A stretch of DNA of 64,000 nucleotides from an uncultured Actinomycetota bacterium (GTDB lineage: Bacteria; Actinomycetota; Thermoleophilia; RBG-16-64-13), in contig CAWDOM010000005.1 in the NCBI GenBank assembly GCA_963803925.1, positions 134,295-198,294 of the forward strand. The letters run 5' to 3'. The number at the start of each line of letters is the position of its first letter. Position 1 is the first letter of the stretch. The notes below the pieces were generated by a model, which was given only the letters and a program-made list of their open reading frames with translations, was not told where the DNA came from and did no database searches. Below, piece by piece: positions 2,038 to 60,630 of this stretch. The position numbers and the translations under genes were made by a program.

Positions 2038-2181
2038 GACTACGACGGAAGCGGATCTCCTCAGCAGCCTCCGGATGGATCGTACGCCAGGATGACCGGG
2101 GCGATCTTCGGATTCTCAGATGCCATTCTGTCTCCCTTCACGACGCACGTAGAACTAGGGCAGCCTATCGGCTACTAGTCA

Positions 2182-3025: not shown

Positions 3026-3034
3026 GGCCGCTCC

Positions 3035-4498: not shown

Positions 4499-4529
4499 AT
4501 CCTCCGCCGATCTTTGGACTCGGTGCCGA

Positions 4530-5459: not shown

Positions 5460-5529
5460 CGAGCAGCCTCCTTCTAACGGCGGATTCTCGGCGCGCGCAT
5501 GGCGCCGGGCTCATTATGAGGCCTCCCGC

Positions 5530-8619: not shown

Positions 8620-8849
8620 CTGCAAGTCGCTTGCTCTGGGGGTGCTGGTCTTTCGTGTTTGTGCCCAGGGCACTCTGCCCGGCCGGTCGGTAAGATTCTC
8701 GATGTAGCTTCGGCCCGACCGCGACAAGGAGACAGGCTTTCATGGGCGCAGACGAACAAGAAGCGATCAGACGAGGGGCGGACACGCCGGCCCATACCCC
8801 ACCATCACGACGGGGTGTCCGCGTCGATAAAACGCGCAAACAAGGGCGC

Positions 8850-9437
8850 ATGGCAAAGGAAGAGCGACAGAAGCAGATCGCCGATGTCACCCTTCGGCTC
8901 GTGGCCAAACACGGCGTCCATGGCGCCACCATATCTCGCATCGCCTCGGGGGTCGGGCTTTCTCGAGCCGCCCTCTACAAGTGCTATCCGAATCGCGAGG
9001 CCATGCTCGAAGCCGCGCTCGACCTTCTCATTTCTCGGGTTCCAAGGTGGATAGCCCGCTCGTCGGGCGAGACCGTCTACGAACACCTCATGGATATGGG
9101 CAACCAGTTCGGCCCGTTGGGCACCGCCGAATTCGAGAACTTCACGCATCCCTGGTTCCAGTTCGCGGCGGCGAGCGGGACGGGCAATCTGACCCAGGAG
9201 TTGGCCAAGCGGCATCTGGTCTTCATCCGGGACTTCGCCGTCCTCATCGAGCAGGGAAAGCGCGATGGGAGCATCCGCGAGGATACGGACACGAATCTCA
9301 TAGCCTGGAGTCTGATGATGTGGGCCTGGGCGGCGGACGTCGCCCGCCTGGTCGGGCTGGAGCAGGTCATGGGCACCGGCACGGAGGTCGAGATCTTCAG
9401 GCGCATGCTAGGTGACATCGCGGCTCGGGAGGTATAG
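8850..9437 (+). CDS. TetR/AcrR family transcriptional regulator, paralog 1
   Basis: N-terminal HTH (ATISRIASGVGLSRAALYKCYPNREAML). Start at the internal Met (MAKEERQKQ); the ORF track begins at 8742. About 75% identical to the TetR at 23617. Confidence 0.75.
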   Translation: MAKEERQKQIADVTLRLVAKHGVHGATISRIASGVGLSRAALYKCYPNREAMLEAALDLLISRVPRWIARSSGETVYEHLMDMGNQFGPLGTAEFENFTHPWFQFAAASGTGNLTQELAKRHLVFIRDFAVLIEQGKRDGSIREDTDTNLIAWSLMMWAWAADVARLVGLEQVMGTGTEVEIFRRMLGDIAAREV

Positions 9438-9470
9438 GCATGCCATAGGAGACAAAGGAGGCGTTGCAAT

Positions 9471-9497
9471 GTAGCCACGGGACAGTGTAGCCACGGG
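9471..9497. repeat. Two direct repeats GTAGCCACGGG, 16 bp start-to-start, between the TetR stop and the liv-type operon RBS
   Basis: Read directly: aatGTAGCCACGGGacagtGTAGCCACGGGgcg. Confidence 0.35.
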
Positions 9498-9519
9498 GCG
9501 TGACTTGGAGGAGATAGAC

Positions 9520-10848
9520 ATGAAGGCGACGCGTATCGCATTCGGGGTTCTGTTTCTGGCGTTGATAGTAGGCTTGCTTCCGCTGCTCGCAGCCTGCGGC
9601 GGAGGCGAGGAGACGACGACCACCTCGGCAGCGCAAGTTACTACAACCACTGCCGGCGCAGGGCAGCCTACGACCACATCTGGAGCCGTGCCAGACACCA
9701 CGGCAACGACCGCGGCGGAGGGGCCGGCGCAGACGTACACGATCGGTCTCATCCATTCAATGTCGGGCATGATGGCGGCGGCGTTCAACGCTGTCACCGA
9801 GGCCATGCCTCTGGTTGAGGAAGTGCTCAATGCCAGGGGTGGTTTCACCGTCAACGGCCAGAAGTACACCATCAAGCTCGTCGTAGAAGACGACATGTCC
9901 ACAACTGACGGCGCGATCGCCGCCGCCAAGAAGCTCATTGGGGCAGAAGTCAAGCAGGTCATCGCCCCGCAGTTCATCCCCAACAACGCCGCAATTGCCC
10001 CCATCTGCGAGCAGAACAAGATACTCCGGGTCGTGAGCATCGGCCCGAACCTGACAGAGTATGCGGCGGGAACCAGCCATTACTGCTTTGCCGCCATCTC
10101 GACCGCCGTTGGCGCGCAGGCCACCCTTGACAAGACCTTCGAACTGTACCCCAACGTCAAGAAGATAGCCGTGGTGGCTCTCGATGACCCCGGCATCCAG
10201 GACATCGTCGGCCGGGCGAAGGAGGACTTCCTGAGGCGAGGAATGGAGATCACTCTTGACGAGCAGTTCCCGCCGGATCTCCAGGACTTCTACCCGCTGA
10301 TAACGAAGGCGCTCGCGACCAACCCTGACGCCATCGCGGGAGTGGCCGGCGCACCTCCGTTCGCCAAGGGCCTCCTTGAGTCGATGCGGCAGATGGGCTT
10401 CACCGGCCCGCTGCTGACGGCGGCCGGCTGGGGTGACCCCGTCCAACTCACCCACCTCATCGAGGCGCAGTACGATACCGACTTTCCCATGCAGCAGCCG
10501 GACGTGACCAGCGATCTCATGCCAGACATTGTCAAGGAACTCAAAGCGCTGTCAGACGCCAAAGGCATGACCATGCAGTTGGACTACACCCTGCTCCTGG
10601 GCGGTGTGTGGACCATCGTCCAGGGTATCGAGAAGGCGCAGAGCTTCGACAACGACGCCATCGTCGCAGCCATGGAGACCATGGACTTCGACACCATCTA
10701 CGGGCCCGGCAAGATGGGCGGTGCCGAGAATGTGGCCGGCGTGAACATCGGCCAGAACCGCCTGATGCTGACGCCTATCCCATTCAGCCTCATCAAGGAC
10801 GCCAAGGTCGAATTCCAGTGGCTGCCGGCGCCGGTGCCTGGTACCTGA
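9520..10848 (+). CDS. ABC transporter substrate-binding lipoprotein, Liv-type (periplasmic-binding-protein type 1) family
   Basis: Signal peptide plus lipobox LLAACGGG, a Thr-rich linker, and a PBP1 fold. ATG at 9520 follows a GGAGGAG RBS; the ORF track starts at 9505. Confidence 0.8.
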   Translation: MKATRIAFGVLFLALIVGLLPLLAACGGGEETTTTSAAQVTTTTAGAGQPTTTSGAVPDTTATTAAEGPAQTYTIGLIHSMSGMMAAAFNAVTEAMPLVEEVLNARGGFTVNGQKYTIKLVVEDDMSTTDGAIAAAKKLIGAEVKQVIAPQFIPNNAAIAPICEQNKILRVVSIGPNLTEYAAGTSHYCFAAISTAVGAQATLDKTFELYPNVKKIAVVALDDPGIQDIVGRAKEDFLRRGMEITLDEQFPPDLQDFYPLITKALATNPDAIAGVAGAPPFAKGLLESMRQMGFTGPLLTAAGWGDPVQLTHLIEAQYDTDFPMQQPDVTSDLMPDIVKELKALSDAKGMTMQLDYTLLLGGVWTIVQGIEKAQSFDNDAIVAAMETMDFDTIYGPGKMGGAENVAGVNIGQNRLMLTPIPFSLIKDAKVEFQWLPAPVPGT

Positions 10849-10970
10849 GCGACGGATCGCCTACGGGTCAGTGTCGCTCTTTCGGAGTGCCGGCCGGCGC
10901 CGGGCATCGGAGGAGCGACACCGGCCTTCACACGTCGTTCCGTAGTCGCTGAAGGGAGCCAAGGTCCCAC

Positions 10971-11831
10971 ATGGGTGTAGTCGGGCAAGGAATACTCAAC
11001 GGGTTGTCGTCGGCTGGGATATACATCCTGGTGGCACTGGGGCTGACACTGGTTCTGAGCATCGTCAACATCGTGCAGATGGCCCATGGCGAGTTCTACA
11101 TGGTGGGTTCGTACTGCATGTACTACCTAATGACGCGTCTCGGCCTCAACTTCTTTCTTTCGGTGGTGATCGCCACCATCGTCGTGGGCGGCCTCGGCGT
11201 GATCGTGGAGCGCTTCGGCTTCCGGCCCCTGCAAGGCGACCCGGACCGCTCAATGATCGTGTCCATCGGGCTGATGCTGGCACTCCAGAACATCATGCTC
11301 GCCGTAGCAGGTGGCATCTCCAAGAGCATCAAGAGCCCGTACCCCGGCGTCGTGAGGATCGCGGGCACCACCATCTCATGGGACCGATTGATCATCGTGC
11401 TGGTCGCGGTCTTCTTGGTCGCGGTTCTCTTCTTCTTCATCAAGACGACCAAGACAGGTACAGCCATGCGCGCTATCTCCGAAGATCGAGTCGCCGCGAG
11501 GCTTCAGGGCATCAGCATCAACCGCATCTCGGCAACTGCCATGTGTTTCGGCTGTGGCCTCGCAGCCATCGCCGGAGCCGTCGTCGGCCCGGTCTTCGCG
11601 GTCTCCCCGACAATGGGCAGCTTCGCCCTGATGAAAGGCATCGGAGTGATAATCCTTGGCGGCCTAGGGAGTCTCCCTGGGGCGGTCTGTGGAGGCCTCA
11701 TCATCGGCATGATCGACGGCATCGTGCCGCTCTACACCTCCGCCTATGCGGCCAGCGTCATCTCGTTCGCGATGGTCATCTTGATCTTGCTGGTTCGTCC
11801 TCAGGGGATCCTGGGTCATGAATCCAAATAG
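10971..11831 (+). CDS. Branched-chain-amino-acid-type ABC transporter permease (LivH-like)
   Basis: 286 aa polytopic protein with HAAT-family permease motifs. Confidence 0.8.
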   Translation: MGVVGQGILNGLSSAGIYILVALGLTLVLSIVNIVQMAHGEFYMVGSYCMYYLMTRLGLNFFLSVVIATIVVGGLGVIVERFGFRPLQGDPDRSMIVSIGLMLALQNIMLAVAGGISKSIKSPYPGVVRIAGTTISWDRLIIVLVAVFLVAVLFFFIKTTKTGTAMRAISEDRVAARLQGISINRISATAMCFGCGLAAIAGAVVGPVFAVSPTMGSFALMKGIGVIILGGLGSLPGAVCGGLIIGMIDGIVPLYTSAYAASVISFAMVILILLVRPQGILGHESK

Positions 11832-12800
11832 CTCGCGGAGCTTTCCCTGGCGGCCGGCAACCGTGGCGGCGATACTGGCATTCGTTTGCGCGCTGCCCTT
11901 CATCTTCACCGGCGCGTACGGCCGCCAAGTGCTGGTGGTGTGCGGAATCAACATCATCGTTGCCTGTAGTGTGCGTCTTATCAATCTGACCGGGCAGTTC
12001 TCGCTCGGCACCGGCGCAATGATGACTCTGGGCGGCTATCTTTCAGCCCTCTTGGCAATCCACTATGGCGTGTCGCCCTGGATAGGCTTTGTGATCGCCG
12101 CCGCCGCCGCGTTCGTGGTCGCCTGCTTGTTCGGCATCGCCTTCGTCCGCCTCAAGGGCATGTACTTTGCGATGGTGACGTTGTTCTTCGCGCAGATCGT
12201 GACCCTCATCGTGCTCGATCTGCGCAGTTTCACCGGTGGCATCAACGGGCTCTTCGACATCCCGTGGCCGAACGGTATCCGGGTCGAGACCGCGTTCTTC
12301 TACGTGGTGGTGGCTATCTCTGCGCCGTCTGCCTGCTGGTGTTCTATCTCCTCGAGCACTCACGCTTGGGTTTGGTGTTCCGGGGAATAAGACAGACGGA
12401 GACCCTCTGCGAGAGCGTCGGCATCAACGTTCGCATCATGAAGGTGCTGGCCTTCGGACTCGGTTCGCTCTTCGCCGGGCTCGCCGGCGCATGCTACGGG
12501 CACTACATGCAGGCTCTCAACCCCTCGGCCTTTGGTTTCACGTTCACGCTCTACGCCGTGATCTACATGGTGGTGGGCGGGAGCAATGCGTTCGTGGGGC
12601 CTATCGTGGGCGCAACCGTCTTGACACTGGCGAACAACCTGCTCCGGGCGTTCGCCAAGTTCCAGCCCTTGTTCTTCGCGGCAGTGTTGCTGTTGATCGT
12701 GTTCCTCATGCCTGAGGGACTCGTCGGACTGCCGAAACGGACGATGACCGTGGTCAGCAGATATCGAGAGCGAAGGAGCGCACGTGCTGCTCAGGGTTGA
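11818..12800 (+). pseudogene. LivM-like ABC permease, frameshifted near 12330
   Basis: ORFs 11818..12390 and 12264..12800 are both LivM-like but in different frames. Confidence 0.65.
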
Positions 12801-13554
12801 GGGATTGACCAAGCGGTTCGGAGGCCTGCAGGCCGTCTCCGGACTCGACATGGGCGTCGAGTCCGGGCGAGATCGTCGGACTCATCGGACCCAACGGAGC
12901 CGGCAAGACAACGGTCTTCAATCTGCTGACCGGAGCTCATCGGCCGACGAGCGGCAAGGTGACGTTCTGAGGATAGGGACATCACCGGGTGGAAGCCTCA
13001 CTCGGTGGCGGCGCTGGGCATGGTGCGCACGTTCCAGATCACGAACATCTTCTCGAACTTCACCGTCCAGGAGAATCTGGTTCTCGCATGCAATCTCAAG
13101 GCGGACATCAGCTATTGGGGATCGACATTCCGCACGCGTAGAAGCCGCGCCAAGGAGAAGCAGGTCCTGCAGCGCTGCGACGAGATCCTGGAGACGGTCG
13201 GCCTGCAGAGCGTGAAGACCGCCACTGCCGGCACGCTCGCGCACGGGCACAAGAACCTGCTCGGTATCGCCATCGCTTTGGCGGCCGAACCGAAACTGCT
13301 CCTGCTCGATGAGCCCCTGGCTGGAATGAACGCACACGAGGTGCTCAGGAGGCTCTCGACGTCATCCGCAGGCTGTGGGCGAACGGAACGACTATCTTGC
13401 TGATAGAGCACAACATGAAAGCAGCCATGGCGCTCTGCGAGCGACTGGTGGTCATCAGTTTCGGCAAGAAGATCGCCGAAGGCACACCGGCGGAGATACG
13501 GGCAGAACAGATCGGTGATCGAGGCCTACCTTGGGGACGATACCTATGTTGCTT
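12784..13554 (+). pseudogene. LivG-like ABC ATPase, multiply frameshifted
   Basis: Walker A fragment ([18 protein letters not shown]...), then LivG pieces at 13005..13403 and 13350..13554 in other frames. Confidence 0.65.
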
Positions 13555-14256
13555 GAGTTGCGCAACGTGACGGTCCACTACGGGACGGCCGAAGCAGTAC
13601 GGGACATATCCTTCGGCATAGACGAGGGCGCCGCGGTGAGCGTCATAGGCGCCAATGGAGCCGGCAAGAGCACCATCATCAAGGCCGTCTGCCGGGCTGG
13701 TGAAGCTGCATTCCGGTGAGATCGAGTTCGACGGCAAGCAGGATCGATCGGCTTGTCGGTCGACACGATCGTAGGACGTGGGGTCATGTGCGTCCCGAGG
13801 GCCGAAGGCTGTTCCCCTGGATGAGCGTCGCCGACAACATCAAGATCGGCGCCTACTTGGAGAAAGACAAGAAGGCGATCAAAGGCGAAGCTGGAAGAGG
13901 TCTTCGAGCTGTTCCCACGGTGCAAGGAGAGGTTGAGCCAGAGAGCCGGCAGCCTGAGCGGCGGTGAGCAGCAGATGGTGGCGATCGCCCGGGCGATGAT
14001 GGCCCAAGCCGAGGCTGCTCATGATGGACGAACCTTCGCTGGGCTTGGCGCCCATGGTGATCAATGACCTGGCGACGACGATCATCGAACATCAACAGGA
14101 GCGGCGTGGCCATTCTCCTCGTCGAGCAGAACGCCGGCCTGGTGATGAAGGTGGCCCAGGAAGCTCACGTGCTCGAGGTCGGTGAGATCGTCGCGCAAGG
14201 TCCGGATGAAGGACCTCGTCGACAATGACTCGGTGCGGAGGGCGTTCGTGGGATGA
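13546..14256 (+). pseudogene. LivF-like ABC ATPase, multiply frameshifted
   Basis: [13 protein letters not shown]...GANGAGKSTI, then fragments in shifted frames. The start overlaps the LivG stop (ATGTTGCTTGA). Confidence 0.65.
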
Positions 14257-14268
14257 ACGCAAAGGAGT

Positions 14269-16238
14269 ATGACGTTGTCACTGCCCACAAGATACCCGCA
14301 CGTGTTCCGGCCGATCACTGTCGGCAACATGACGCTCAAGAACCGCATCCAGTTCTCGCCCATCGTGTCTCGTCACGCCGACCCCTACACGGGCACCTCG
14401 CACCAACGACCTGGTGGAGTTCCTCGGCGCCCAGGCCCGCTCGGGCGTGGGTTGGTCACCATCGGCTCGTCGCCCATCGACTTCGATCGGGCCCGCGACT
14501 TCTATGGATGCCTCTCGGTCGTACGGGAGAGCCGACGTGGCCAGCCTGTCGGTGCTCGCCGAGGAGGTGCACCGCTACGGCGCGAAGCTGTCCATCGAAC
14601 TGACCCACGCCGGCGCCGTCAGCGACCCTGCCCTACTCGCCGGCCCGGCCTTCGCGCCCTCGGTCATCCCGGGCATCCACAACCCGCACACCACCAAGGA
14701 GATCGACCGGGCCGAGATGGATGAGGTGAAGCAGCATTGGGTCGACTGCGTGCGACGGGTCAAGCGGGCCGGCTTCGACATGGCCATGATCCACGGCGCT
14801 CATATGAACCTGTTCGCCTCGTTCCTCACCCCGCTACTCAACCACCGCACCGACGATTATGGTGGAAACCCAGAGAACCGCATGAGGTTCCCGCTGGAGG
14901 TCCTCGAAGGCGTGCCGCGAGGAAGCCGGACCGGACTTCGGTCTCGAGCTGCGCATCAGCGGCGACGAGCGTGTGCCGGGTGGCGTGACGCTCGAGGAGC
15001 GCATCGCCTTTCTCAACGCAGCCGCTCCTTACATCGATATGGTCATCGTCTCCACGGGCGGCTTCCTCTTCCCCGAGACGGCCGCATACATGATGGCCGG
15101 CTACCACTTTCCCCACCTGCTGAACGTGGAGACCGCGGCCGAGATCAAGAAGGAGCGTGGACCTCCCGGTCTCGGTGGTCGGCGGCATAACCACCATCGA
15201 TGAGGCCGAGGAGATCCTCGCCGCCGGCAAGGCCGACATCGTGGCCATGGCCAAGGCGCTCATCGCCGACCAGGACCTGGTGACCAAGGCCAAGGTGGGC
15301 AGGGCCGACGAAATCCGCCCCTGCCTGCGCTGCCTCGAGTGCGCGTACGGCGGCCTCATCGGCACCCCCCTGCGCTGCGCAGTGAATCCCCAGGCCGGCC
15401 GTGAGATCAAGTACCGCGAGATCCCCCTCGCTCGAAGGAAGAAACGGGTGCTGGTCATCGGAGGCGGTCCCGCGGGTATGACGGCCGCGCGCGACGCCTG
15501 CGAGCGCGGCCATGAGGTGACCCTGTGGGAGAGGTCGGAGAGACTGGGCGGGCGCCTCTTCGAAGCCGCGGCGTTGCCTCAGAAAGACACGGCCCGCGCC
15601 TACGTCGACTGGGCGATCCGATCGACCATGAAGTGCGGCGCCACGAGTCGTCTGGGCAAGGAGGCTACTCCCGCCGACATCGAGGCGGAGGCGCCCGACG
15701 CGGTCATCGTCGCGGTCGGGGCCGAACACGCCCGGCCACCGCATCGACGGGATCGACCTGCCGCACGTCATGACCGTCTCCGAGGCCGACCTGGGTAGCA
15801 GAAGCCGGTGGATCAGAACCGTGGTTGTCTGCGGAGGCGGGCTCTCCGGCTCAGAGTGCGCCGCCGGACTGGCCATGGCGGGCAAGAAGGTCACGGTGGT
15901 CGACATCCTGCCCGAGGAAGCCCTGTGCCAGGACGCCGTCGACCTTGTCCGGGTCGCCCTTTTCGCACTTCTGAAAGACAAGGGCGTCGAGCGGGTCCAG
16001 GGCGCCGTGAAGAGCCATCACCACGACGGGGGTCGCCATCGACCCTCCCTGACGGTGGCACCATCGAACGTTGCCGGCGGACACAGTGGTCATCGCGTTC
16101 GGCCTCCGGCCGAACGTAGCGATTGTCGAATCACTGCTCAACGTCGTCGCGGAGAGCTATGTGGTGGGGGACTGCAGGAACGTAGGCAGAATCTTCGCAG
16201 CCAATCACGACGCGTTCAACGTCGCCGTGGAGGTGTGA
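14269..16238 (+). pseudogene. OYE / 2,4-dienoyl-CoA-reductase-like oxidoreductase, paralog 2, with about 5 frameshifts
   Basis: OYE and FAD/NAD-domain fragments sit at 14269.., 14414..15190, 14973..15203, 15157..15798 and 15770.. in different frames (FDMAMIHGAHMNLFASFL; RPCLRCLECA; VLVIGGGPAGM). AAAGGAG RBS before the ATG at 14269. Confidence 0.65.
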
Positions 16239-16281
16239 CGTGTGCCCTTCGCCGGCAACAAACGAGCAGCGCCGAGCCAGC

Positions 16282-17475
16282 ATGATCGAGGCGCACATCG
16301 ACTCTCTGCTGCGGCAGAGGCTAGAGACTTTGGAGCGCGCCAAGAACGAAGGGACGAAGGTGGTAGGTTACCTTCCTGGAGGATTCGTACCCGATGAGCT
16401 GATCTACGCGTCGGGAGCGATCCCCTTGTGTCTTGCCGCCGGAGGGGACGGCCGCGTGGCGGATGAGGCGCTCTCGCTCGTGCCGAACGTGATCTGTCCG
16501 TTCGCTCGAGCGCAGATCACCGAGCTGATGCGACAGACCGATCCGTTCTACAACGCGATAGACCTGCTCATCGTTCCCTCGACCTGCCAGCACATGAAGA
16601 AGATCGGCGACATCTGGGAGTTCCAGGAAGGCAGGGAGGTGTTCAAGCTCGGCGTGCCATACGAGCACGACAAGGCCTTCGAGCTCGAGTACTACCGAGA
16701 CCGCCTGTACGCTTTGAAGAAAAGGCTCGAGGCACTCACAGGCAAGAACATCACGGATGACAGACTCTTCGAGGCGGCCGAGACATACAACCATCTGCGG
16801 CTACTTCTGAGGACCTTGGGACAGACGCGCCGGAACGCGCACCAAGAGGACGAAGCGATCAGTACGCTCGAGTTTGCCCGACTCAGCCACGCTTCGTTCT
16901 ACGCGGATCCGGTGGCGATGACCGCGTCGCTCGAGGAGATCTGCGCTGAAATCCCCTCCAGCGCAGATCCCTCGGCCGACATCCCCGGCCTGTCTCTTCG
17001 GAGGCGACCGCGGCTCCTGCTCGTGGGGCCCAACCTGGCGGCCGGAGACTACGACCTGCTGAAGATGGTCGTCGACGCCGGCGCGGACGTAGTCGTCGAG
17101 GACATCTTCGAGGGCATACGCGACTATGGGCAGGTCGTCGACCTGTCCGGGCGCGAGGACTGCTTGGAGGCCCTCGCCAGAGCCTACCTAATCGACAAGA
17201 GACCAGCGGCTTTCATGCGCGGATCGCTGCCCCCGAGGCTCGATCATCTTCTCTACCTGACTCGGGACTTCGCTGTATCGGGCGTGCTCTGGTATCAACT
17301 CCTCTGCTGTGAGTTCTACGATGAGGAGTCCTACTATTTCCAGAGGATGCTGCAGGAGCGCGGCATCCCCATGCTCGTGATCGAGTCCGACTATCACGCC
17401 CTCGACTCGGGGCAGCTCAGAACGAGGTTGGCCGCCTTCGTCGAGACCTTACAGGGAGGTCCAATCGATGCGTGA
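16282..17475 (+). CDS. 2-hydroxyacyl-CoA dehydratase / BcrBC-family (HGD-D domain) subunit, ~400 aa, pair 1
   Basis: Conserved Cys in VICPFARA, TCQHMK and LLCCEFYDEES. Start at the Met that aligns with the paralog at 27100; the ORF track begins at a GTG at 16240, which has a GGAGG RBS and is an alternative start. Confidence 0.7.
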   Translation: MIEAHIDSLLRQRLETLERAKNEGTKVVGYLPGGFVPDELIYASGAIPLCLAAGGDGRVADEALSLVPNVICPFARAQITELMRQTDPFYNAIDLLIVPSTCQHMKKIGDIWEFQEGREVFKLGVPYEHDKAFELEYYRDRLYALKKRLEALTGKNITDDRLFEAAETYNHLRLLLRTLGQTRRNAHQEDEAISTLEFARLSHASFYADPVAMTASLEEICAEIPSSADPSADIPGLSLRRRPRLLLVGPNLAAGDYDLLKMVVDAGADVVVEDIFEGIRDYGQVVDLSGREDCLEALARAYLIDKRPAAFMRGSLPPRLDHLLYLTRDFAVSGVLWYQLLCCEFYDEESYYFQRMLQERGIPMLVIESDYHALDSGQLRTRLAAFVETLQGGPIDA

Positions 17476-18865
17476 GTTGCTGGCACTGTGTGGGTTCGAC
17501 GAGCGTGAGAGCAGTGAGCTCCTCCCCCGCGTTCAGCAGGTCTTCGTTCGCACCGGACTGACCGCCGCGGACATCGAGATCGCGAAGCAACGCTTGACCA
17601 CCTACTACGACATGGAGCTTCGCGGCGTTCGCAGACTGATGGGTCTCTTCCTCAAGGACTTCTGCGATATCGTCCTCATGAGGGAAGACGGCAGAAAACG
17701 CATCGTTCACGCCTGCATGCTGCCGGGGATGGACCTACTCGGATCGGCCATCATGGACAACACGGCGGAGGTCGGGTTGATTAGCCCGAACACCACGTTC
17801 ATGGTCGTCTTGGGCTGCATGTTCGGTAAGTTCGTGCCCGTTCTCGAGGCCGCGGAGAGGCAATGGCTGAAGGCCGGAGCGGTAGCGCATTGCGGTATGG
17901 TGAAGAGCAGGGTCGGGCTGATCAGTCTCGGCCTCATCCCGAGGCCTGACCTGACCATCACATCGGGATACGTCTGCGAGACGAGCCCCAAGGTGAACGA
18001 GATAATCGAACAGGTACACGGCATACCCGCCTGCTTCGTGGACGCCATGGAGGACCGGGAGCTGTGGGAATACCCGGCCGCGTCCCGAGCGACGACCTAC
18101 GCCGCCAAGAGCATGCGGGCCGCCTGTGGGCGAATCGAGCAGGTGACGGGCTTCGGTCTGGCGGACGACATGCTGTGGCGTGTCATCGAGGGTCGAAGGC
18201 CCCTCGATGAAGCCATGAACAGAGTGGCAGAGCTGATCAGAACGGCCGACCCTCTGCCGCTTGGCTCCACTCATTTGAACTTGCTGCTGGCCGTCAACTG
18301 CATTTCGTTTGTCGGAGACCAGCTGCCCGAGGCGATCGACATTCTCGACACTCTGCGGGCCGAGTTGCTGGCCAGAACCCGCAGGGGAGTCGGCGCTACG
18401 CCGAAGGGAGCGCCTCGCGTGCTCGCGATCTTTCCGCACCACCACTCCGATCCTCGCTGGGAGCACCAAGCGAATCAGGCCGGCCTCGCCATAGTCGCCT
18501 TCGATTTCCAAGGAGCTTCGGAACTGGCCGGCTCCGAAGTCGCGATCGCCGACCCCAACGATCCCTACGAAGTCATCGTGCAGAACCTCCACGGGTCGTT
18601 CACTCAGCCCCTGGGCGGACGCATCGCCATCGTGGTCGACTTTTGCAGGCGGTTGAGGGTGGACGGGGTGCTCAATCACTACCACCTCGGGTGCCGGTAC
18701 GTCGTGGGTGACGCGTTGATACTGCGGGATGCGATCGTCAAGGAGCTCGGCATGCCGGTGCTCATGGTCGAATGGGACAACTTCGACCCCCGTTCCTACA
18801 ATCAAGAACAGTATGAAGCCAAGCTGGAGACTTTCAGAACCATGATCGAATCGAGGGTTTCATGA
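17468..18865 (+). CDS. 2-hydroxyacyl-CoA dehydratase / BcrBC-family (HGD-D domain) subunit, 465 aa, pair 1
   Basis: Cys in VLGCMFGKF, HCGMVKSRVG and HYHLGCRY. It overlaps the upstream subunit by 8 nt, consistent with translational coupling. Confidence 0.7.
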   Translation: MRELLALCGFDERESSELLPRVQQVFVRTGLTAADIEIAKQRLTTYYDMELRGVRRLMGLFLKDFCDIVLMREDGRKRIVHACMLPGMDLLGSAIMDNTAEVGLISPNTTFMVVLGCMFGKFVPVLEAAERQWLKAGAVAHCGMVKSRVGLISLGLIPRPDLTITSGYVCETSPKVNEIIEQVHGIPACFVDAMEDRELWEYPAASRATTYAAKSMRAACGRIEQVTGFGLADDMLWRVIEGRRPLDEAMNRVAELIRTADPLPLGSTHLNLLLAVNCISFVGDQLPEAIDILDTLRAELLARTRRGVGATPKGAPRVLAIFPHHHSDPRWEHQANQAGLAIVAFDFQGASELAGSEVAIADPNDPYEVIVQNLHGSFTQPLGGRIAIVVDFCRRLRVDGVLNHYHLGCRYVVGDALILRDAIVKELGMPVLMVEWDNFDPRSYNQEQYEAKLETFRTMIESRVS

Positions 18866-20302
18866 CGGACTCTGGACGCCGTGAGTCAAACGCCGACGCG
18901 ACCGAGCTGTTTGTCGCCAGTTTCCAGAACGCCACGTTCGAGAACCTACCGTCCGAAGTGGTCGAGATCACCAAGCACCAAGTGCTCGACTTCTTCGGTG
19001 TCGCGCTGGGCGGTTCCGGAGAGGCCGGTGTCGCCGAGATGCGCGATCTGGTGCTCGAATGGAGCGGAACGCCGCAGGCCCACGTCTTTCGTTGGGGCGA
19101 CATGGTGCCGGCGCCCGACGCCGCCCAGGTCAACGCGACCATGGCTCACTCGCTCGATTTCGACGACGTCCATGAGGATGCGATCATGCACCCGGGAGTC
19201 GTGGCGATCCCCACAGCCCTTGCCATGAGCGAATATGTCGGAGACGTGGACGGCCGGGAGTTCCTCACCGTGGTTGCCTTGGCTACCGACTTCATCTGTC
19301 GTTGCGGCCTGGCAACCCGGCCAGGCGAGAGCAAGCTGCCGTACGGATGGCACCTGACGACACTCTACGGCGCCATGACGGCAGCCTTTGTCGCTGCCCG
19401 TCTGCTGCGCATGGACGCCGACACCATGACCAGCGCGGTCGGCATCGCGTACCACCAGGCCTCGGGAAACGGCCAGTGTGTGAAAGACGGGGCTCTCACA
19501 AAGCGTATGGGCCCGGGCATGGCCGTGCGGGCAGGCATCGTGTCGGCGCTCATGGCCAAGCGGGGCATCACGGGAGCCCGCAACTGCCTGGAAGGCGCGG
19601 CCGGTCTGTACAACGTCTACCACATGGGTGCCTACTCGCGCGAGAGACTGGTGAACGACCTCGGCGCGCGCTTCGAGGGCCTCAACGTGTCGATCAAGCC
19701 CTATCCCTGCTGCAGGGGCGTGCATGCGTTCATCGATGCCGGCCTGGCCCTTGTCGACCAAGCATGATCTCCGCCCAGACGATGTGGAGAGCATCCTCAT
19801 CCAGTGCGGAGAGGGCACCTACGGGCTTCTGGGCTCTCCGCTTGAGTTCAAGAAGCGGCCTCGCAATCCGGTCGACTCCCAGTTCAGTATCGTCTGGGGA
19901 GTAGCGACGGCTCTGGCGCGGCGCCGCGCGACACTCGCCGACTTCACGTGGGAGGCGATCGGCAGCAGCGACATCCTCGGTCTCTCGACGAAGACTGATG
20001 TGCGGGTGGAGCCCGAGTTCAACCGTGGCGACCAGGGTATCGAGCCCGCACGGGTGACCGTGCGCATGAGAGACGGCGGGGTGTTCGTGGAGCAGTGCGA
20101 CCTACCCACCGGCACGCCTTCGCGGCCGCTCTCCTTCTCCGACATCGAGCGAAAGTTCCGGAGCCTGCTGGAACATGCGGGCCAGCCGATTCCCACCGGT
20201 GCCGCCGACCGGCTCGTGCAGACGGTCGCCCGGCTGGACAACCTTGAGGACACCCGCGATCTCGCCCGTCTGGCGGGACAAGAACAGGGAGTGAAACAAT
20301 GA
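18862..20302 (+). CDS. MmgE/PrpD family protein (2-methylcitrate-dehydratase-like), paralog 1, frameshift near 19740
   Basis: ORFs 18862..19767 and 19724..20302 both carry MmgE/PrpD-family sequence in different frames. ATGA overlaps at both ends. Confidence 0.65.
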
Positions 20303-21222
20303 GATTGGACGGCAAGGTAGCGATCATCACCGGTGGGGGCACAGGCATCGGCAGAGCCATCGCGGAACGCTTCGTCCTGGATGGAGCCGATGTTTGCATT
20401 ACCGGCCGGCGGGTCGAAGTGCTCGAAGCGAGCGCGGCTTCAATGCCGGCCGGCCGGGTGAAAACGTGCGCGGCCGACGTGAGCAACGCGGTAGATGTGG
20501 AACGAGTGGTCGAGAGCGCCCTCTCGTTCGGGCACGGCCTGCACTGTCTCGTCAACAATGCCGGCACCGATCAGCCGATGGCCGGCGTGGCCGATCTCGA
20601 CCCTGCCCTATGGGACCACGTGCTCTCGGTGAACCTCACCGGGCCGTTTCTCATGATGAGGGCCGCCATTCCGCACATGATCGAAGCCGGCGGCGGCGCC
20701 ATCGTGAACATCTCGTCCCTCGCTGGGCTGGTGAACCCCCAGGGTCTACCCGCCTACTGCGCGTCGAAGGGCGGTCTCATCAGTCTTTCGAAACAGGTGG
20801 CAGTTGACTACGGCGTGAACAACGTACGCTGCAATGTGATCTGCCCCGGAGCCACCATGACCGAGATGTTCGTCGGCAGCATGGTGCCATTCGCAGAGGC
20901 CTGCGGCGTCAAGATCGAAGACGTGTTCGGCACCTTCGCCCGCGACATTCCCCTCCGCCGCCTGTCCAGTCCTCACGAGATGGCGGGGTTGTGCAGCTTC
21001 CTGGCGAGTGATGATGCAAGCTTCCTCACGGCCGCTGTGATACCGGTCGACGGCGGCGCCGGTGTTGTCGACGTGTCGGGCGCGGCGATCAACCAGATGG
21101 CTGCACGGTACCTCAGAACGGCAAGCCAGGAGACGAGAGACCGCCCTGCTGTTCCTGCAGCGTCGTACTCTCGGTCTCAGCGGGCCTCTGCGAGCGGCTT
21201 CTTTTTGCCGATCCGCTCGTAG
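20299..21222 (+). CDS. SDR family oxidoreductase, with a ~35-aa C-terminal extension relative to its paralog at 49364
   Basis: TGGGTGIGRA, NNAG and YCASK motifs. The last 46 nt overlap a convergent ORF. Confidence 0.8.
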   Translation: MRLDGKVAIITGGGTGIGRAIAERFVLDGADVCITGRRVEVLEASAASMPAGRVKTCAADVSNAVDVERVVESALSFGHGLHCLVNNAGTDQPMAGVADLDPALWDHVLSVNLTGPFLMMRAAIPHMIEAGGGAIVNISSLAGLVNPQGLPAYCASKGGLISLSKQVAVDYGVNNVRCNVICPGATMTEMFVGSMVPFAEACGVKIEDVFGTFARDIPLRRLSSPHEMAGLCSFLASDDASFLTAAVIPVDGGAGVVDVSGAAINQMAARYLRTASQETRDRPAVPAASYSRSQRASASGFFLPIRS

Positions 21223-21869
21223 AACTCCTCGGGTATGTTCTCTGGGTGCTTGTAGAAGACGTACTCACAGGCTCCGTGCCCGATGGGTTCCGACACCACT
21301 TTGACCCGCACGAACCGCCCAGTGTTCTCAATGGCGAGAGCTTCGGTGATAGGGCAGTGCACGCAGTAGATGGGGAAGTCCTTCTTGCCCCAGGTGACGG
21401 CATGCGGTCCTTCGACTTTCGCCAGACCGACTTCGGAGCTGTAGCCGCCCATCTGGATGATCCGCTCCCCCGACCCGCAGGGCTTCATGCTGAGGCTGAT
21501 CGTCTCGTCGGTCTCGACGATGGTGATCGGCTGCATGTGGCCGCGCAGGCCGCTTGCCGTCTGCTCCACCAAAGAGCGGAGGTCGGTCTTCTCCGGCGGC
21601 TTGAAAACCACCTTCGCCTCGGCGGTGTGGGCCTGCCTCTCCGCTTCTTCGAGCGCCTCGGTGCCGTGATTCTCGTAGATGTAGGTCTGAAGACCGGCAA
21701 CCCAGAACATGTACCCATCGTGGAGGTGGTTGTACTCCTTCTTCATGCGCTGCGCCAGAGTCTTCGCCCTGTCCTTGTCACCGGCGTCGATGGCCTGCGA
21801 CAGGAGGTCCAGGGTCGGCGTCCCCAGCTCCTTCAACTCCTGCTCGGTGAAGAGCCTGTCCTTGCTCAT
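21177..21869 (-). CDS. Hypothetical protein with Cys motifs (C-x4-..; CVHC; HGAC), possibly metal-binding
   Basis: 230-aa ORF with good coding character. I recognise no family. Confidence 0.4.
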   Translation of the reverse strand: MSKDRLFTEQELKELGTPTLDLLSQAIDAGDKDRAKTLAQRMKKEYNHLHDGYMFWVAGLQTYIYENHGTEALEEAERQAHTAEAKVVFKPPEKTDLRSLVEQTASGLRGHMQPITIVETDETISLSMKPCGSGERIIQMGGYSSEVGLAKVEGPHAVTWGKKDFPIYCVHCPITEALAIENTGRFVRVKVVSEPIGHGACEYVFYKHPENIPEEFYERIGKKKPLAEAR

Positions 21870-21925
21870 GATGTCTCCCGTGCGATCGCTTCGCGTCCCG
21901 AACCCGCACTGTCGCGGGCAACCCG

Positions 21926-22678
21926 TTAGTGAGTCGGATCCAAGCCCAGTCGCGTGAGGAGCTTCACCCGGAATTCATCCCCGCCGGAACCAAGGGCCGT
22001 CAAAGTGATAGGCATGCGCTTCAGGCTGTCGAGCACCACGCCGCACATGTCGAACGGAATGCTCAGAAGATGCACGCCCGGGGCAAATACTCCGAGCGCC
22101 CGCATGCCCATGCTGAGTATCGAGGTGTAATTGACCTCGCCGGTGAGATAGGGGTAGACGAAGAGCCACGCGCAGCCGATCACCCCAGTGCTCTTGCTGG
22201 TCCACATGTCTCCCGTGGAGTAGCTCATCGCCCGCAGGACGACTTCCGATTGCTCCTCGCGGGCGGCGATAATCAGAAGATCGGGGTCGCCGGCAAGCTT
22301 GCCGAGGGGCGCCAGCGTCACGTACTCGATGCCGCGCCTGTCCTCCAGCCTCGGTATGTGATCATAGAGGCGGCTCCCCGAGCGGGGGCTATCGAAGACC
22401 TCGAGCCCGGTGCCGTAGACCCCTGACGTGTACACGAGTGGAAGGTCTTTGCCGAGCGCGTAGAGGGCCGCACCACACATGTGATTCTCCGCGGCCGCGT
22501 AGAAAGCGTTGCCCTGTTGGGCGTGACGAAGCATCTCGCAAAGGCGCATGGTGCCGTCGAGACGGGGAACATCCTCCGGAGGATCGACGGAGTACGTCAC
22601 CCCCACTGGTGGAACCTCGAAGCCGATCTCGCTGCCGGCCTCCAACCATCCTTGCTGGTCGAAACCCATGGATATCAC
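21926..22678 (-). CDS. Hypothetical protein, possibly DUF169-like
   Basis: 250-aa ORF. The DUF169 resemblance is weak. Confidence 0.35.
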   Translation of the reverse strand: MISMGFDQQGWLEAGSEIGFEVPPVGVTYSVDPPEDVPRLDGTMRLCEMLRHAQQGNAFYAAAENHMCGAALYALGKDLPLVYTSGVYGTGLEVFDSPRSGSRLYDHIPRLEDRRGIEYVTLAPLGKLAGDPDLLIIAAREEQSEVVLRAMSYSTGDMWTSKSTGVIGCAWLFVYPYLTGEVNYTSILSMGMRALGVFAPGVHLLSIPFDMCGVVLDSLKRMPITLTALGSGGDEFRVKLLTRLGLDPTH

Positions 22679-22724
22679 TGATGCCTCCTATGCCGTCTGT
22701 TCTTGTGGCTGGACGAGCCGGGTG

Positions 22725-23550: not shown

Positions 23551-23616
23551 AAAGATTCTGGGCGGAGTGGCGTTGGGACGGACACCAGGGGCTTCTGCCG
23601 GGAGGGTCACCGAGCT

Positions 23617-27099: not shown

Positions 27100-28254
27100 A
27101 TGAAGATCCCCCAGATCGGCGCCCTGATGGAGACGAGACTGCAGGACCTGGCAGAAGCCCGCGGCCGCGGCACAAAGGTCGTGGGGTATCTCTCCGGCGG
27201 CTTCGTGCCCGACGAGCTCATCTACGCGTCGGGAGCCATCGCGCTCTGCCTCAGCCATGGCGGCGAGGCCCGGGCGACTGAGCGGGCGCTCGCGCTCGTG
27301 CCCAACGTGATCTGCCCGTTCGCCCGCGCCCAGATCGGCGAGACACTGCTGAGGACCAACCCTTTCTACGCTTCGTTGGACTTGGTGGTAGTGCCGACAA
27401 CCTGCCAGCATCTGAAGCAGGCCGGCGATGTGTGGGAGCACTTCGATGTGGTCGACGTCTTCAAGCTGGGCGTTCCCTACGACTGCCAGGACGACTACGA
27501 ACTCGAGTACTACCGAGACAGACTGGCCGAGCTGAAGAGGGCGCTCGAGCGACTCACCGGCACCCTCATCACCGACGACAAGCTGAACGATGCTATCGCC
27601 GTTCATAACCGGCTGCGCGGGCTGCTGAAGACGCTGAGCCTGGCGCGCCGCGGGCCGCGGCCGGCCGTCGACACCCTCGACTTCGTGCGACTGAACCACC
27701 TCTCCATGTATGCCGACCCCGTCAGCACCTGTGCTGTGCTCGAGACTCTCTGCGGCGCGACCGCCGAGCCGCCGGCGCCCGCGGCGAAGAGACCGCGTGT
27801 GATGTTGATCGGGCCCGCCCTCGCCTTCGGCGATTACGACATCATCAGGATGATCGCCGACGCGGGGGCCGACGTGGTGGTCGAGGAGGTGCTCGAGGGC
27901 ATGCGCGACTACTGGCAGGTCGTCGACGGCCCCGGCGATCCGCTCGACCGGCTCGCGAGAAGCTATCTACTCGGCAAGAAGCCGGCCGCGTTCATGAGGG
28001 GCGCGACCCGCAAGAGGCTCGATTTCGTGCTCGATCTCATCGAGGAGTTCGACGTCGACGGCGTGCTCTGGTACCAGCTGCTCTGCTGTGAGCTCTACGA
28101 CGAGGAGTCGTTCCTCTTCGAGAAGGTGCTGCAGAAACGGGGCATTCCCCTGCTGCTGGTCGAGTCCGACTACCACAACCTCGACGCGGGCCCGGTGCGC
28201 ACGCGGCTGGACGCGTTCGTCGAGATCCTACGAGGCGGGCCGGTCGATGCTTGA
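27100..28254 (+). CDS. 2-hydroxyacyl-CoA dehydratase / BcrBC-family (HGD-D) subunit, ~385 aa, pair 2
   Basis: About 65% identical to 16282..17475, with the same Cys motifs (VICPFARA, TCQHLK, LLCCELYDEES). The ORF track begins at 27022; start chosen by paralog alignment. Confidence 0.7.
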   Translation: MKIPQIGALMETRLQDLAEARGRGTKVVGYLSGGFVPDELIYASGAIALCLSHGGEARATERALALVPNVICPFARAQIGETLLRTNPFYASLDLVVVPTTCQHLKQAGDVWEHFDVVDVFKLGVPYDCQDDYELEYYRDRLAELKRALERLTGTLITDDKLNDAIAVHNRLRGLLKTLSLARRGPRPAVDTLDFVRLNHLSMYADPVSTCAVLETLCGATAEPPAPAAKRPRVMLIGPALAFGDYDIIRMIADAGADVVVEEVLEGMRDYWQVVDGPGDPLDRLARSYLLGKKPAAFMRGATRKRLDFVLDLIEEFDVDGVLWYQLLCCELYDEESFLFEKVLQKRGIPLLLVESDYHNLDAGPVRTRLDAFVEILRGGPVDA

Positions 28255-29674
28255 GCTTCTAGAACTCTGCGGATTCGACGACGGAGAACGTCAGGCTCAG
28301 CTCCCCCGAGTGAAGTCGGCCTTCTCGAGGCTGGACCTGACCGAGGACGACATCAAGACGGCCAAGGAGAGGCTCCACCTCTACTACGACATGGAGTTGT
28401 CGGGCGTCAGGATGATGGTGGGCGTCCTTCTGAAGGACATGGTCGATATCGTGCTGCTTCGCGACGAGGGCGCGCGAAAGGTCATCCATTCGTGCATGGC
28501 GCCGGGATTCGAGGTGCTCGGCACGGCCATCAACACGAACTCCGACGACGTTAGGCTGACCTATCCGAACTTCACATTCATGGCGGTCCTCGGGGGTGTG
28601 TTCGGCAGGTTCGTGCCGGTGCTCGAGGCTGCCGAGCGGTTGTGGCTGCGAGGTGGCATCGTGCGCCACTGCGGCATGGTCAAGGCCAGGGTGGGCCTCA
28701 TGAGCTTGGGACTGCACCCCCGGCCCGACCTGACGGTGACCACAGGCTACCTCTGCGACACCAGTCCGAAATCAAACGAGATCATGGAAGCGGTCTTCGG
28801 CATACCGGCGTACTGCGTCGACCATGTGCAAGATCGCCGGTCCGCCGAGTTCCCCGACGGCAGCCGGCTGACCGTGTTGTCTGCCAAAGGCATGCGCAGG
28901 TTCGGCGCCGTCGTGCAGAGAGAGACCGGCCTCGAGGTGACCGACGAGATGTTGTGGCGGGCCATCCAGGCGCGACGGCCCATCGGACAGGCGATGGATC
29001 GAGTGCTCGACGTGATCCGTCTCAACGACCCTCCACCGCTCGGGGCGACTCATCTCAACCTGCTCGCGGCGCTCGGCCGGCCGCCCTACAAGGAGAGTGA
29101 GATTCCGCGGGTGGTGGAAATCCTCGACACGCTCCGCGATGAGTTGGAGAACCGCGTGCGCGGAGGCGTGGGGGCGGTTCCCAAGGGTGCGCCTCGCATC
29201 CTCGTGCTGTGCCCAAACCATCACTCCGACCCCCGCTTCGAGTACCTGTCCAACCGGCTCGGCCTGAACATCGTAGCCTCCGACTTCAACTTCTCCTCGG
29301 GAGAAGACAGGTCGGGCGCGGGCATCGTCGACCCCAACGACCCATACGATGTCATCTGCCAGCATCCTCACGGCACCCCCGGTCAATGTCTGGGGGGGCG
29401 GGCCCATATCATTCTCGACGTCTGCCGGCGCCTCCGCATCGACGGCGTCATCGACCACTACCACGCGGGTTGCAGGTACATGGCCGCCGACACCGTCGCG
29501 CTGCGCGAAACGGTCACCCGGGAACTGGGTATTCCGGTGCTGGCCTATGAATGGGACAACTTCGACCCCCGTTCGTACAACGAGAAGGACCTGGTGGCCA
29601 ACCTCGAGACGTTCTGGGGAATGGTCGAAACGAGTGGCGGCCCAATCCAGCAAGGAGAAAAACGTCATGAGTGA
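28247..29674 (+). CDS. 2-hydroxyacyl-CoA dehydratase / BcrBC-family (HGD-D) subunit, ~475 aa, pair 2
   Basis: ATG at 28247 overlaps the upstream stop by 8 nt. HCGMVKARVG and HYHAGCRY are conserved, but VLGGVFG replaces VLGCMFG of the paralog. The ORF track starts at 28088. Confidence 0.7.
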   Translation: MLELLELCGFDDGERQAQLPRVKSAFSRLDLTEDDIKTAKERLHLYYDMELSGVRMMVGVLLKDMVDIVLLRDEGARKVIHSCMAPGFEVLGTAINTNSDDVRLTYPNFTFMAVLGGVFGRFVPVLEAAERLWLRGGIVRHCGMVKARVGLMSLGLHPRPDLTVTTGYLCDTSPKSNEIMEAVFGIPAYCVDHVQDRRSAEFPDGSRLTVLSAKGMRRFGAVVQRETGLEVTDEMLWRAIQARRPIGQAMDRVLDVIRLNDPPPLGATHLNLLAALGRPPYKESEIPRVVEILDTLRDELENRVRGGVGAVPKGAPRILVLCPNHHSDPRFEYLSNRLGLNIVASDFNFSSGEDRSGAGIVDPNDPYDVICQHPHGTPGQCLGGRAHIILDVCRRLRIDGVIDHYHAGCRYMAADTVALRETVTRELGIPVLAYEWDNFDPRSYNEKDLVANLETFWGMVETSGGPIQQGEKRHE

Positions 29675-30305: not shown

Positions 30306-30349
30306 GCGCAACGATCTCATCGGTGAACCACGACACAGGAGCCAAGAAC

Positions 30350-31303: not shown

Positions 31304-31336
31304 CCACATGGGTCGCACGGAGAGGATGGCTCAGTG

Positions 31337-33220: not shown

Positions 33221-33271
33221 AGCCGGGAAATAGCCGAGTACATCGTTCAATGCGACGCTAAGGGGTTCGGA

Positions 33272-39572: not shown

Positions 39573-39582
39573 GCCGAACCTC

Positions 39583-59147: not shown

Positions 59148-59169
59148 TCCCCGCTCCTTAGCCCGACTA

Positions 59170-60587: not shown

Positions 60588-60630
60588 GACATCCTTTCTC
60601 TCAGTGACAGTGCCGGGCAACCGCGACCGG

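Follow-up and report, generated by a model that had tools for sequence, protein, structure and literature searches.

To our knowledge, every characterised enzyme of the family that comprises the class I benzoyl-CoA reductases (BCR I), the 2-hydroxyacyl-CoA dehydratases (HADs) and the double-cubane cluster proteins (DCCP) depends on an ATP-hydrolysing electron injector, or archerase, and the heterodimeric enzymes among them all need CoA thioesters. HADs use a homodimeric activator. The DCCP reductase, DCCP-R, is homodimeric, DCCP itself is marked by a 7-Cys motif, and its cluster was not reduced without the ATPase by the dithionite or Ti(III)-citrate tried (PMC7317905). In the benzoyl-CoA reductase BzdNO, six cysteines of BzdN hold an [8Fe-9S] cluster, Cys95, Cys128 and Cys380 of BzdO hold an aqua-[4Fe-4S] cluster, the N-type subunit is the entry point for electrons, and forward catalysis could not be driven without the ATPase by the dithionite or Ti(III)-citrate that was tried; what currently limits the use of enzymatic Birch-type reduction, according to the authors of this structure, is its need for CoA (PMC11971306). 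Here, we describe two adjacent genes, A1 and B1, in a 64-kb stretch (64,000 nucleotides, hereafter the window) of contig CAWDOM010000005.1 from an uncultured, anaerobic actinobacterium of the Thermoleophilia. They encode a pair of subunits of this family, no gene for the ATPase lies anywhere in the window, and more distant relatives carry two ATPase genes directly after the pair. We lean towards the view that A1B1 makes up the catalytic core of a low-potential reductase that depends on ATP, with the ATPase supplied in trans.

A1 and B1 are intact genes of the HGD-D family

The two genes are arranged as follows.

16240..17475, + strand: A1, BzdN/BcrC/HadC-like (electron-relay type) subunit, 411 amino acids (aa), GTG start
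17468..18865, + strand: B1, BzdO/BcrB/HadB-like (catalytic type) subunit, 465 aa

An alternative ATG start for A1 at 16282 would give a protein of 397 aa, and cysteines are numbered here on that form. The GTG at 16240 is favoured, 411 aa being the length called for A in relatives; a GGAGGTG Shine-Dalgarno sequence lies 5 nt ahead of it, and the upstream gene, for a flavoenzyme of the old yellow enzyme (OYE) type, stops 1 nt before it. A1 and B1 share 8 nt (ATGCGTGA) downstream of a GGGAGG Shine-Dalgarno sequence, which bears out the translational coupling claimed in an earlier reading of the letters alone (the sequence-only reading). Both proteins match the Pfam HGD-D profile (PF06050) far above its cut-off of 28.4 bits (A1, 235.8 bits, E 1.3e-69; B1, 114.7 bits, E 8.9e-33), so that by this profile both belong to the HGD-D (BCR I/HAD) superfamily, as that reading had assigned them. 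Its account of the neighbours also holds, with a broken OYE/Pyr_redox_2 gene upstream and MmgE/PrpD-family and short-chain dehydrogenase (SDR) genes downstream, a context that is not the classical one. The G+C content of the window is 61-67 % in steps of 2 kb. When compared with L054, a short-read contig that is 91 % identical to the window and in which OYE, A, B and PrpD are intact, A1 and B1 show zero indels over 2.6 kb, and with dN/dS values of 0.26 and 0.13 they are under purifying selection.

Among the NCBIfam models, double_cubane (NF040772, cut-off 350 bits) was the top match for both proteins, at 214 bits for A1 and 45 bits for B1. Against the models for class I benzoyl-CoA reductases (TIGR02260/02263, and TIGR03190/03191 for the bzd type), A1 scored 72.7 bits for BcrC and 71.9 bits for BzdN (cut-offs 421 and 454), and B1 scored 24.5 bits for BcrB and 27 bits for BzdO (cut-offs 487 and 449). 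Against the dehydratase models (NF052455/NF052456), B1 reached 24.6 bits for HadB (cut-off 750) and A1 reached 81.8 bits for HadC (cut-off 700). In the PDB, A1 matched DCCP best (E 1e-31, 26.6 % identity), followed by BzdN (E 1.5e-19, 26.0 %), and by MbdN and HadC at ∼1e-15, and a profile of the B family matched DCCP (E 8e-19), MbdO, BzdO and HadB. An AlphaFold2 model of B1 (pLDDT 88.9, pTM 0.91) gave about equal TM-scores of 0.64-0.71 to DCCP, MbdO, BzdO and HadB, and was nearer to these than to BzdN, MbdN and HadC; in a fold search with this model, the top 20 matches, which are all the matches at E ≤ 0.001, fell within the BCR I/HAD family. The comparison by profile and structure prediction that had been proposed earlier thus confirmed the family fold, from the B1 model, and all equivalog cut-offs were missed. 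On these grounds, A1 is the N/gamma/beta-type partner and B1 the O/beta/alpha-type catalytic subunit of a separate, uncharacterised clade, found here in metagenome-assembled genomes (MAGs) only. The pair looks functional and represents an uncharacterised variant within an enzyme family that is already known.

Cluster ligands and active-site residues are retained in both subunits

Ligands were mapped by sequence alignment to solved structures. In A1, C72 (VICPF), C102 (TCQH) and C343 (CCEF) align with C114/C144/C374 of DCCP and C73/C100/C327 of BzdN, and in B1, C142 (HCGM), C170 (YVCETS) and C409 (LGCRY) align with the ligand positions of DCCP, MbdO, BzdO and HadB. Each subunit thus has, as judged by alignment, the three cysteines that mark members of the family. 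The sequence-only reading had picked out VICPF, TCQH, CCEF, HCGM and LGCRY, all of which fall on known ligands, together with GCMFG (C117), which is variable in the family, and it had missed C170, the third ligand candidate of B1. The loss of iron-sulfur ligands, which it had raised as an argument against enzymatic function, is not seen in the alignment, where all ligands are intact.

At the ligand positions of the other cubane, A1 has G33, F276 and A310, and the three cysteines of a second cubane are absent; because of these replacements, A1 should bind one [4Fe-4S] cluster, like MbdN and HadC. In terms of the DCCP 7-Cys motif, three of the seven are kept, and C76, C95, C309 and C343 of DCCP correspond to G, A, F and A. 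Position 276 of A, equivalent to a DCCP/BzdN ligand, is Cys in most of the Dehalococcoidia-type group of relatives, the group to which all ATPase-linked loci belong, and Phe or Leu in the actinobacterial clade.

The ligand cysteines of A are invariant in 29 of 30 sequences (the exception, in L034, is an A-like gene that is more distant and neighbours another pair), and C142, C170 and C409 of B are invariant in 42 of 42. The position of BzdO His131 is occupied by T172/S173 in B1 and in the whole family, and an invariant E/D171 follows the ligand C170. For Glu65, the other half of the catalytic Glu65/His131 pair of BzdO, the equivalent in B1 is not reliably alignable. Over the 42 sequences, the active-site residues of B are the same with or without a linked ATPase (H141, C142, K146, C170, E/D171, T172, K175, C393, H406, C409, R410 and E435), except that C393 is Tyr in one of them.

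The window contains no BcrAD/HgdC-type ATPase

The Pfam scan took in essentially every open reading frame of the window with coding-like G+C at third codon positions, and none of those scanned matched PF01869. A profile built from four solved activases (HgdC, HadI, MbdQ and MbdP, the HgdC query being identical to 1HUX over 260 residues) was run without filters (--max) against all six frames of the window and gave a best E of 7.6, and the regular expression GIDxGSTxxK had zero matches in the six frames. A BcrAD/HgdC-type ATPase is absent from these 64 kb, just as the sequence-only reading had stated for ASKHA-type activases. The hydantoinase A/B genes (54.7-59.2 kb) do not qualify as a stand-in for the ASKHA ATPase; they belong to the Hydantoinase_A/B family, and the activase profile, which has two cluster cysteines, finds nothing there.

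Two candidates from outside the window were likewise rejected. P0242, a high-G+C candidate from a 50 %-representative library, has its relatives in Methylomirabilia/Rokubacteria/NC10. P0444, considered as an ATPase acting in trans, lies on a 1.93-Mb long-read contig (L053 5440-9710; ENA series ERZ250394xx, as are L001, L050 and L052), where it belongs to a separate, conventional cluster in the order PaaX, two enoyl-CoA hydratase (ECH) genes, two HGD-D genes and a fused double BcrAD-type ATPase of 569 aa.

Relatives carry two ATPase genes directly after B

The nearest database proteins are 92-75 % identical and of metagenomic origin. Relatives' loci, labelled L0xx, were collected by scanning one genome per GTDB species, which yielded 48 loci, all in MAGs, from uncultured Actinomycetes, Gaiellales, Thermoleophilia, Dehalococcoidia, Deltaproteobacteria/Thermodesulfobacteriota, Syntrophorhabdaceae and Spirochaetes. 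The operon is shared by close relatives, in which each of its genes is intact; it runs from the gene for a binding protein through those for two permeases and two ABC ATPases to OYE (650 aa), A (411 aa) and B (465 aa), and ends in PrpD and/or SDR.

In nine loci from Dehalococcoidia and Spirochaetes MAGs, with 40-46 % identity to B1, two different ATPase genes lie directly 3' of B. Their products score ∼300 and ∼220 bits against the activase profile, both contain the GIDLGST motif, and the first, when aligned, has two cluster cysteines. The resulting order, A-B-ATPase-ATPase, is the layout of Bzd N-O-P-Q. Examples of this four-gene unit are found at L018 8838-13076 and in L022-L025, L027, L030, L035 and L045; it is very abundant in metagenomes (at least 120 ATPase clusters at ≥ 66 % identity), and a literature search found no paper on it.

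Clades were assigned from a rough neighbour-joining tree of B sequences, which placed B1, together with B2 of a second pair in the window, in a clade of Actinomycetota, Thermoleophilia and Gaiellales with one deltaproteobacterial MAG, and with a small deltaproteobacterial/Thermodesulfobacteriota sister group. Several paralogous cores can occur in one genome, as shown by the two pairs of the window and by three loci (L007, L042 and L044) in MAG MFD02416.bin.2.126. A different arrangement is seen on a Dehalococcoidales contig (L021 285-7487), where four tandem B-type genes are accompanied by a single A-type gene and 16 kb of sequence contain no ATPase.

An ATPase supplied in trans would account for the locus

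In the mechanism that we favour, A1 and B1 would pair up as a heterodimer, the iron-sulfur catalytic core of an enzyme from an uncharacterised BCR I/HAD branch, in which B1 would hold a substrate-facing [4Fe-4S] cluster with one open iron on C142, C170 and C409, and A1 a single relay [4Fe-4S] cluster on C72, C102 and C343. A BcrAD/BzdPQ-type ATPase would take an electron from ferredoxin and, with the boost of ATP hydrolysis, pass it to the A1 cluster, from there to the B1 cluster, and on to the substrate, a direction of flow suggested by analogy with BzdNO. The active-site signature of B is identical across clades, which argues for the same chemistry and the same need for a very low-potential electron; for these reasons, the missing ATPase most likely sits elsewhere in the genome, where it would probably serve several paralogous cores. 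A precedent is offered by the Dehalococcoidia MAG W111, in which one pair (L017) has no ATPase in the 1.4 kb downstream of B and another locus (L034) has one. That the relatives have an ATPase of two genes speaks more for a stoichiometric reductase than for a dehydratase activated catalytically, and a stoichiometric low-potential reduction would accordingly be a likelier reaction than 2-hydroxyacyl-CoA dehydration. The substrate would be an organic acid that the ABC transporter encoded upstream brings into the cell, and A1B1 would work on it in concert with the SDR, the PrpD-type dehydratase and the OYE-type ene-reductase, which is co-translated with the pair. An enzyme that has no activase at all, as the sequence-only reading had implied, is not established, given that relatives at 40-46 % identity carry two BcrAD-type ATPase genes after B and share its signature.

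Several observations weigh against supply in trans. Not only is the window itself devoid of an ATPase, but none is found in any locus of the B1/B2 clade or its sister group, 12 of which extend at least 5 kb on both sides, so that the loss of linkage is clade-wide and not incidental. A profile of the Dehalococcoidia ATPases searched against a set of 5.8 billion sequences returned just close orthologues (≥ 66 % identity, mostly ≥ 74 %), and neither profile nor representative-library searches showed an ATPase in any genome of the actinobacterial clade. Finally, the gene context lacks a CoA-activating enzyme, and all characterised ATP-dependent heterodimeric members act on CoA thioesters.

Neighbouring genes and the nature of the frame breaks

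These further genes surround A1 and B1.

8742..14253, + strand: TetR regulator and branched-chain-type ABC importer (binding protein at 9505-10848, two permeases, two ATPases), from Pfam and from tblastn with the intact L001 genes
14269..16238, + strand: OYE-type flavoenzyme (Oxidored_FMN + Pyr_redox_2), from tblastn with the intact L001 and L047 orthologues
18862..20302, + strand: MmgE/PrpD-family gene, with PF03972 and PF19305 on its two pieces
20299..21222, + strand: SDR, the last gene of the operon (adh_short, adh_short_C2, E ∼1e-52)

The MmgE/PrpD gene overlaps B1 by 4 nt (ATGA), and orthologues of the SDR, 82-84 % identical, follow the pair or PrpD in L001 and L047. The order of the TetR and importer genes is kept in relatives. 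Three parts of this region are interrupted. Upstream of OYE, the second permease and the ABC ATPases of the importer are frameshifted relative to the intact L001 genes. OYE, which is ∼650 aa, intact and in the same position in relatives, is in at least six frame segments in the window, and PrpD, intact at 472-474 aa in relatives, is frameshifted at ∼19751 by one extra T compared with L054.

The sequence-only reading had called the OYE gene decayed, and this was not borne out. The gaps relative to L054 are 1-2-nt insertions in the window, eight in 15.3-16.24 kb (OYE) and one in PrpD. After the indels are removed, OYE has no in-frame stop and a dN/dS of 0.23, and PrpD has a dN/dS of 0.12; split genes of a like kind are found in related long-read MAGs. 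For these reasons, OYE is probably not decayed, and local assembly or polishing error, perhaps worsened by paralogues, is the more likely source of its breaks. The breaks are not at long homopolymers, and this check did not separate sequencing error from mutation.

Interrupted genes occur elsewhere in the window as well. Frameshifts lie at 3-2115 (-), 11818-16238 (+), 19751, 57194-59174 (-) and 59376-60692 (-), and the genes concerned are a pyruvate formate-lyase-like glycyl-radical enzyme (in three pieces), the ABC permease and ATPases, OYE, PrpD, hydantoinase A and a second PrpD. For genes that have a close relative in intact form, the breaks prove to be insertions of 1-2 nt, and their spread is very uneven (8 in 0.9 kb of OYE, 0 in 2.6 kb of A1/B1).

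Substrate context

Among the Pfam-scanned reading frames of the 64 kb, there is no CoA ligase, CoA-transferase, enoyl-CoA hydratase, acyl-CoA dehydrogenase or thiolase, and no CoA-pathway genes stand beside the ATPase-linked relatives L018 and L027, whose neighbours encode GlcD/GlcF-like proteins, an enolase-superfamily protein, sulfatases and a sulfotransferase. The window holds many OYE/Pyr_redox_2, KstD-like FAD_binding_2, SDR, glyoxalase, isochorismatase, NmrA, aldo-keto reductase (AKR) and aldehyde:ferredoxin oxidoreductase (AOR) genes, together with ABC importers. Because this context lacks CoA enzymes and is rich in redox genes and ABC importers, a free acid, alicyclic or aromatic, is a possible substrate for A1B1. 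Thiolase-like, MaoC and acyl-CoA dehydrogenase genes do lie within 10 kb of the pair in one Thermoleophilia relative, L051. No CoA-activating gene is nearby, and the sequence-only reading was right to leave the substrate and the type of reaction open. The A1/B1 clade, which was found in uncultured anaerobes only, has full cluster sites, is under purifying selection, and has the ATPase adjacent in some lineages and absent from every examined locus in others, is therefore a concrete place to ask if the family can work on free acids and how unlinked cores and ATPases are matched.

Alternative explanations

The absence of cis ATPases throughout the clade, compared with their adjacency in relatives, is what would be expected if the actinobacterial clade had dispensed with the archerase. 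Electrons would then come from the OYE-type FMN/FAD/[4Fe-4S] flavoenzyme, from ferredoxin or flavodoxin, or from a NuoF-like plus NuoG/GltD-like module, and such a variant may use an easier, non-CoA substrate or run oxidatively. The tight and conserved OYE-A-B-PrpD coupling is in keeping with this, as are a flavodoxin gene beside the pair in L052, a NuoF/GltD-like module with FAD_binding_2 genes that adjoins the pair in L001 and lies 7-18 kb away in the window, the replacement of Cys at position 276 of A, and the finding that BzdNO, by itself, can run the reverse (oxidative) reaction with viologens (PMC11971306). These clues are not positive evidence, however, and the module is operonic with the FAD_binding_2 genes rather than with A/B. 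In addition, the B active-site signature is identical to that of ATPase-linked relatives, no family member is known to work without an archerase (PMC7317905), and donors at the level of NAD(P)H or ferredoxin are too weak for the known chemistry of the family (PMC11971306). A literature search found no paper on the A1/B1 clade or on archerase-free members. We consider an ATPase-independent enzyme unlikely, and we regard as quite improbable the version in which the clade, with both window pairs, lost the archerase altogether, takes its electron from the OYE-type flavo-iron-sulfur protein or a (possibly bifurcating) NuoF/GltD-like module, and acts on a free acid. Were that version true, A1/B1 would be the first ATP-independent and CoA-independent radical enzyme of the family; if the ATPase is merely elsewhere in the genome, the pair would be a conventional member of it, though an uncharacterised one.

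An ordinary (R)-2-hydroxyacyl-CoA dehydratase of the HgdAB/FldBC/HadBC type, with its homodimeric activator and CoA-transferase encoded elsewhere, would agree with the 3-Cys sites of both subunits, which are typical of HAD, with their Pfam assignment to HGD-D, and with the adjacent SDRs, which could make a 2-hydroxy acid. We nevertheless find this very improbable, as the pair reaches 25 and 82 bits with the HadB and HadC equivalogs (cut-offs 750 and 700), the ATPase-linked members carry two different, BCR-like ATPase genes instead of one, the 64 kb contain no CoA-transferase, acyl-CoA dehydrogenase or electron-transferring flavoprotein, and the neighbours are OYE, PrpD, isochorismatase, NmrA and KstD-like enzymes. 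The numerous frame breaks of OYE and of the transporter genes upstream, and the single one of PrpD, could also mark the remnants of a pathway in a decaying, non-functional locus, but this is hard to credit for genes that have all ligands intact and that show no indel and low dN/dS relative to L054, next to an OYE gene that has no in-frame stop once single-base insertions are removed, and in view of how common split genes are in related long-read MAGs.

A second pair and other genes of the window

A paralogous pair lies downstream of the first.

27112..28254, + strand: A2, A1 paralogue, 57 % identity (tblastn E 8e-146), with the same NCBIfam profile and Cys pattern as A1
28247..29674, + strand: B2, B1 paralogue, 56 % identity (tblastn E 8e-176), with the same invariant residues

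A2 and B2 also overlap by 8 nt (ATGCTTGA). The gene order around them, isochorismatase-SDR-SDR-A-B-isochorismatase-NmrA-OYE-FAD_binding_2, is kept in L010, L043, L044 and L050. Beside the pair is a divergent group (21177-23453, -) in which a 230-aa protein of no assigned family, without a Pfam or NCBIfam match, is always accompanied by DUF169 and a metallo-beta-lactamase-fold gene; this protein has counterparts of 81-84 % identity in L010 and L044, and L050 encodes it too. TetR regulators at 8742-9437 and ∼23600-24345 (+), one ahead of each A/B operon region, are nearly identical in sequence for the greater part of their length, which points to duplication of a regulatory unit.

Further from the pairs, a row at 2261-7287 (-) encodes an SDR, an FAD_binding_2 flavoprotein, a two-domain glyoxalase-fold protein and an OYE/Pyr_redox_2 enzyme, presumably the same four families as in the equol pathway of Coriobacteriia (DHDR, THDR, racemase and DZNR), and comparable sets are seen again at 30302-34723 and in L010, L019 and L043. 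A conserved block at 36676-42848 (-) and at L001 12321-20290 has two or three KstD/fumarate-reductase-like FAD_binding_2 genes, a Fer2/NuoG/Fer4/GltD-like fusion (703 aa) and a NuoF-like FMN protein. It resembles Nfn/Stn-type NADH/ferredoxin modules, and in L001 it adjoins A-B-SDR genes, followed by a Fer4_11 protein and a molybdopterin enzyme. The window also encodes a glutamate-mutase E-chain homologue at 50256-51494 (-), which matches from profile position 69 and with which no S chain was seen, a tungsten-type aldehyde:ferredoxin oxidoreductase at 51782-53674 (-), and a hydantoinase B/A pair at 54659-59174 (-) that is acetone/acetophenone-carboxylase-like.

Comparison with known systems

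DCCP/DCCP-R of Carboxydothermus hydrogenoformans (CHY_0487/0488; PDB 6ENO and 7YYL) provides the best match for A1 and for the profile of the B family, and the two-domain fold is common to both systems (TM-score 0.64). DCCP is a homodimer that has the 7-Cys motif and an [8Fe-9S] cluster per subunit, whereas A1 and B1 are two diverged subunits with three conserved ligand cysteines each, and A1 has three of the six ligand cysteines of DCCP. The DCCP genes adjoin their ATPase gene (PMC7317905), in contrast to those of A1 and B1.

The Bzd/Mbd class I benzoyl-CoA reductases (BzdNOPQ, PDB 8S02; MbdONPQ, PDB 9G87 and 9GAI) consist, like A1/B1, of two paralogous subunits, N-like then O-like. Their O-like subunit has a 3-Cys [4Fe-4S] site at positions homologous to those of B1 (TM-score 0.68-0.69), and in bzdNOPQ two different ATPase genes lie directly downstream, as in the relatives of A1/B1. 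However, identity to A1/B1 is just 16-26 %, the second cubane of BzdN is not present in A1, and BzdO His131 is replaced by Thr/Ser in the B1 family. Of the four-gene unit of class I benzoyl-CoA reductases (two catalytic and two ATPase subunits), the window has the catalytic genes only, and a CoA ligase and a dienoyl-CoA hydratase-type pathway are missing along with the ATPase.

The (R)-2-hydroxyacyl-CoA dehydratases HadBC/HadI (PDB 3O3M), HgdAB/HgdC and FldBC/FldI, after which the Pfam family is named, have 3-Cys sites in both subunits, and the TM-score to HadB is 0.70-0.71. They differ in their identity of 15-16 % and in the CoA-transferase and activator gene, which are absent from the window. 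They use one ATPase gene, whereas the ATPase-linked relatives of A1/B1 carry two.

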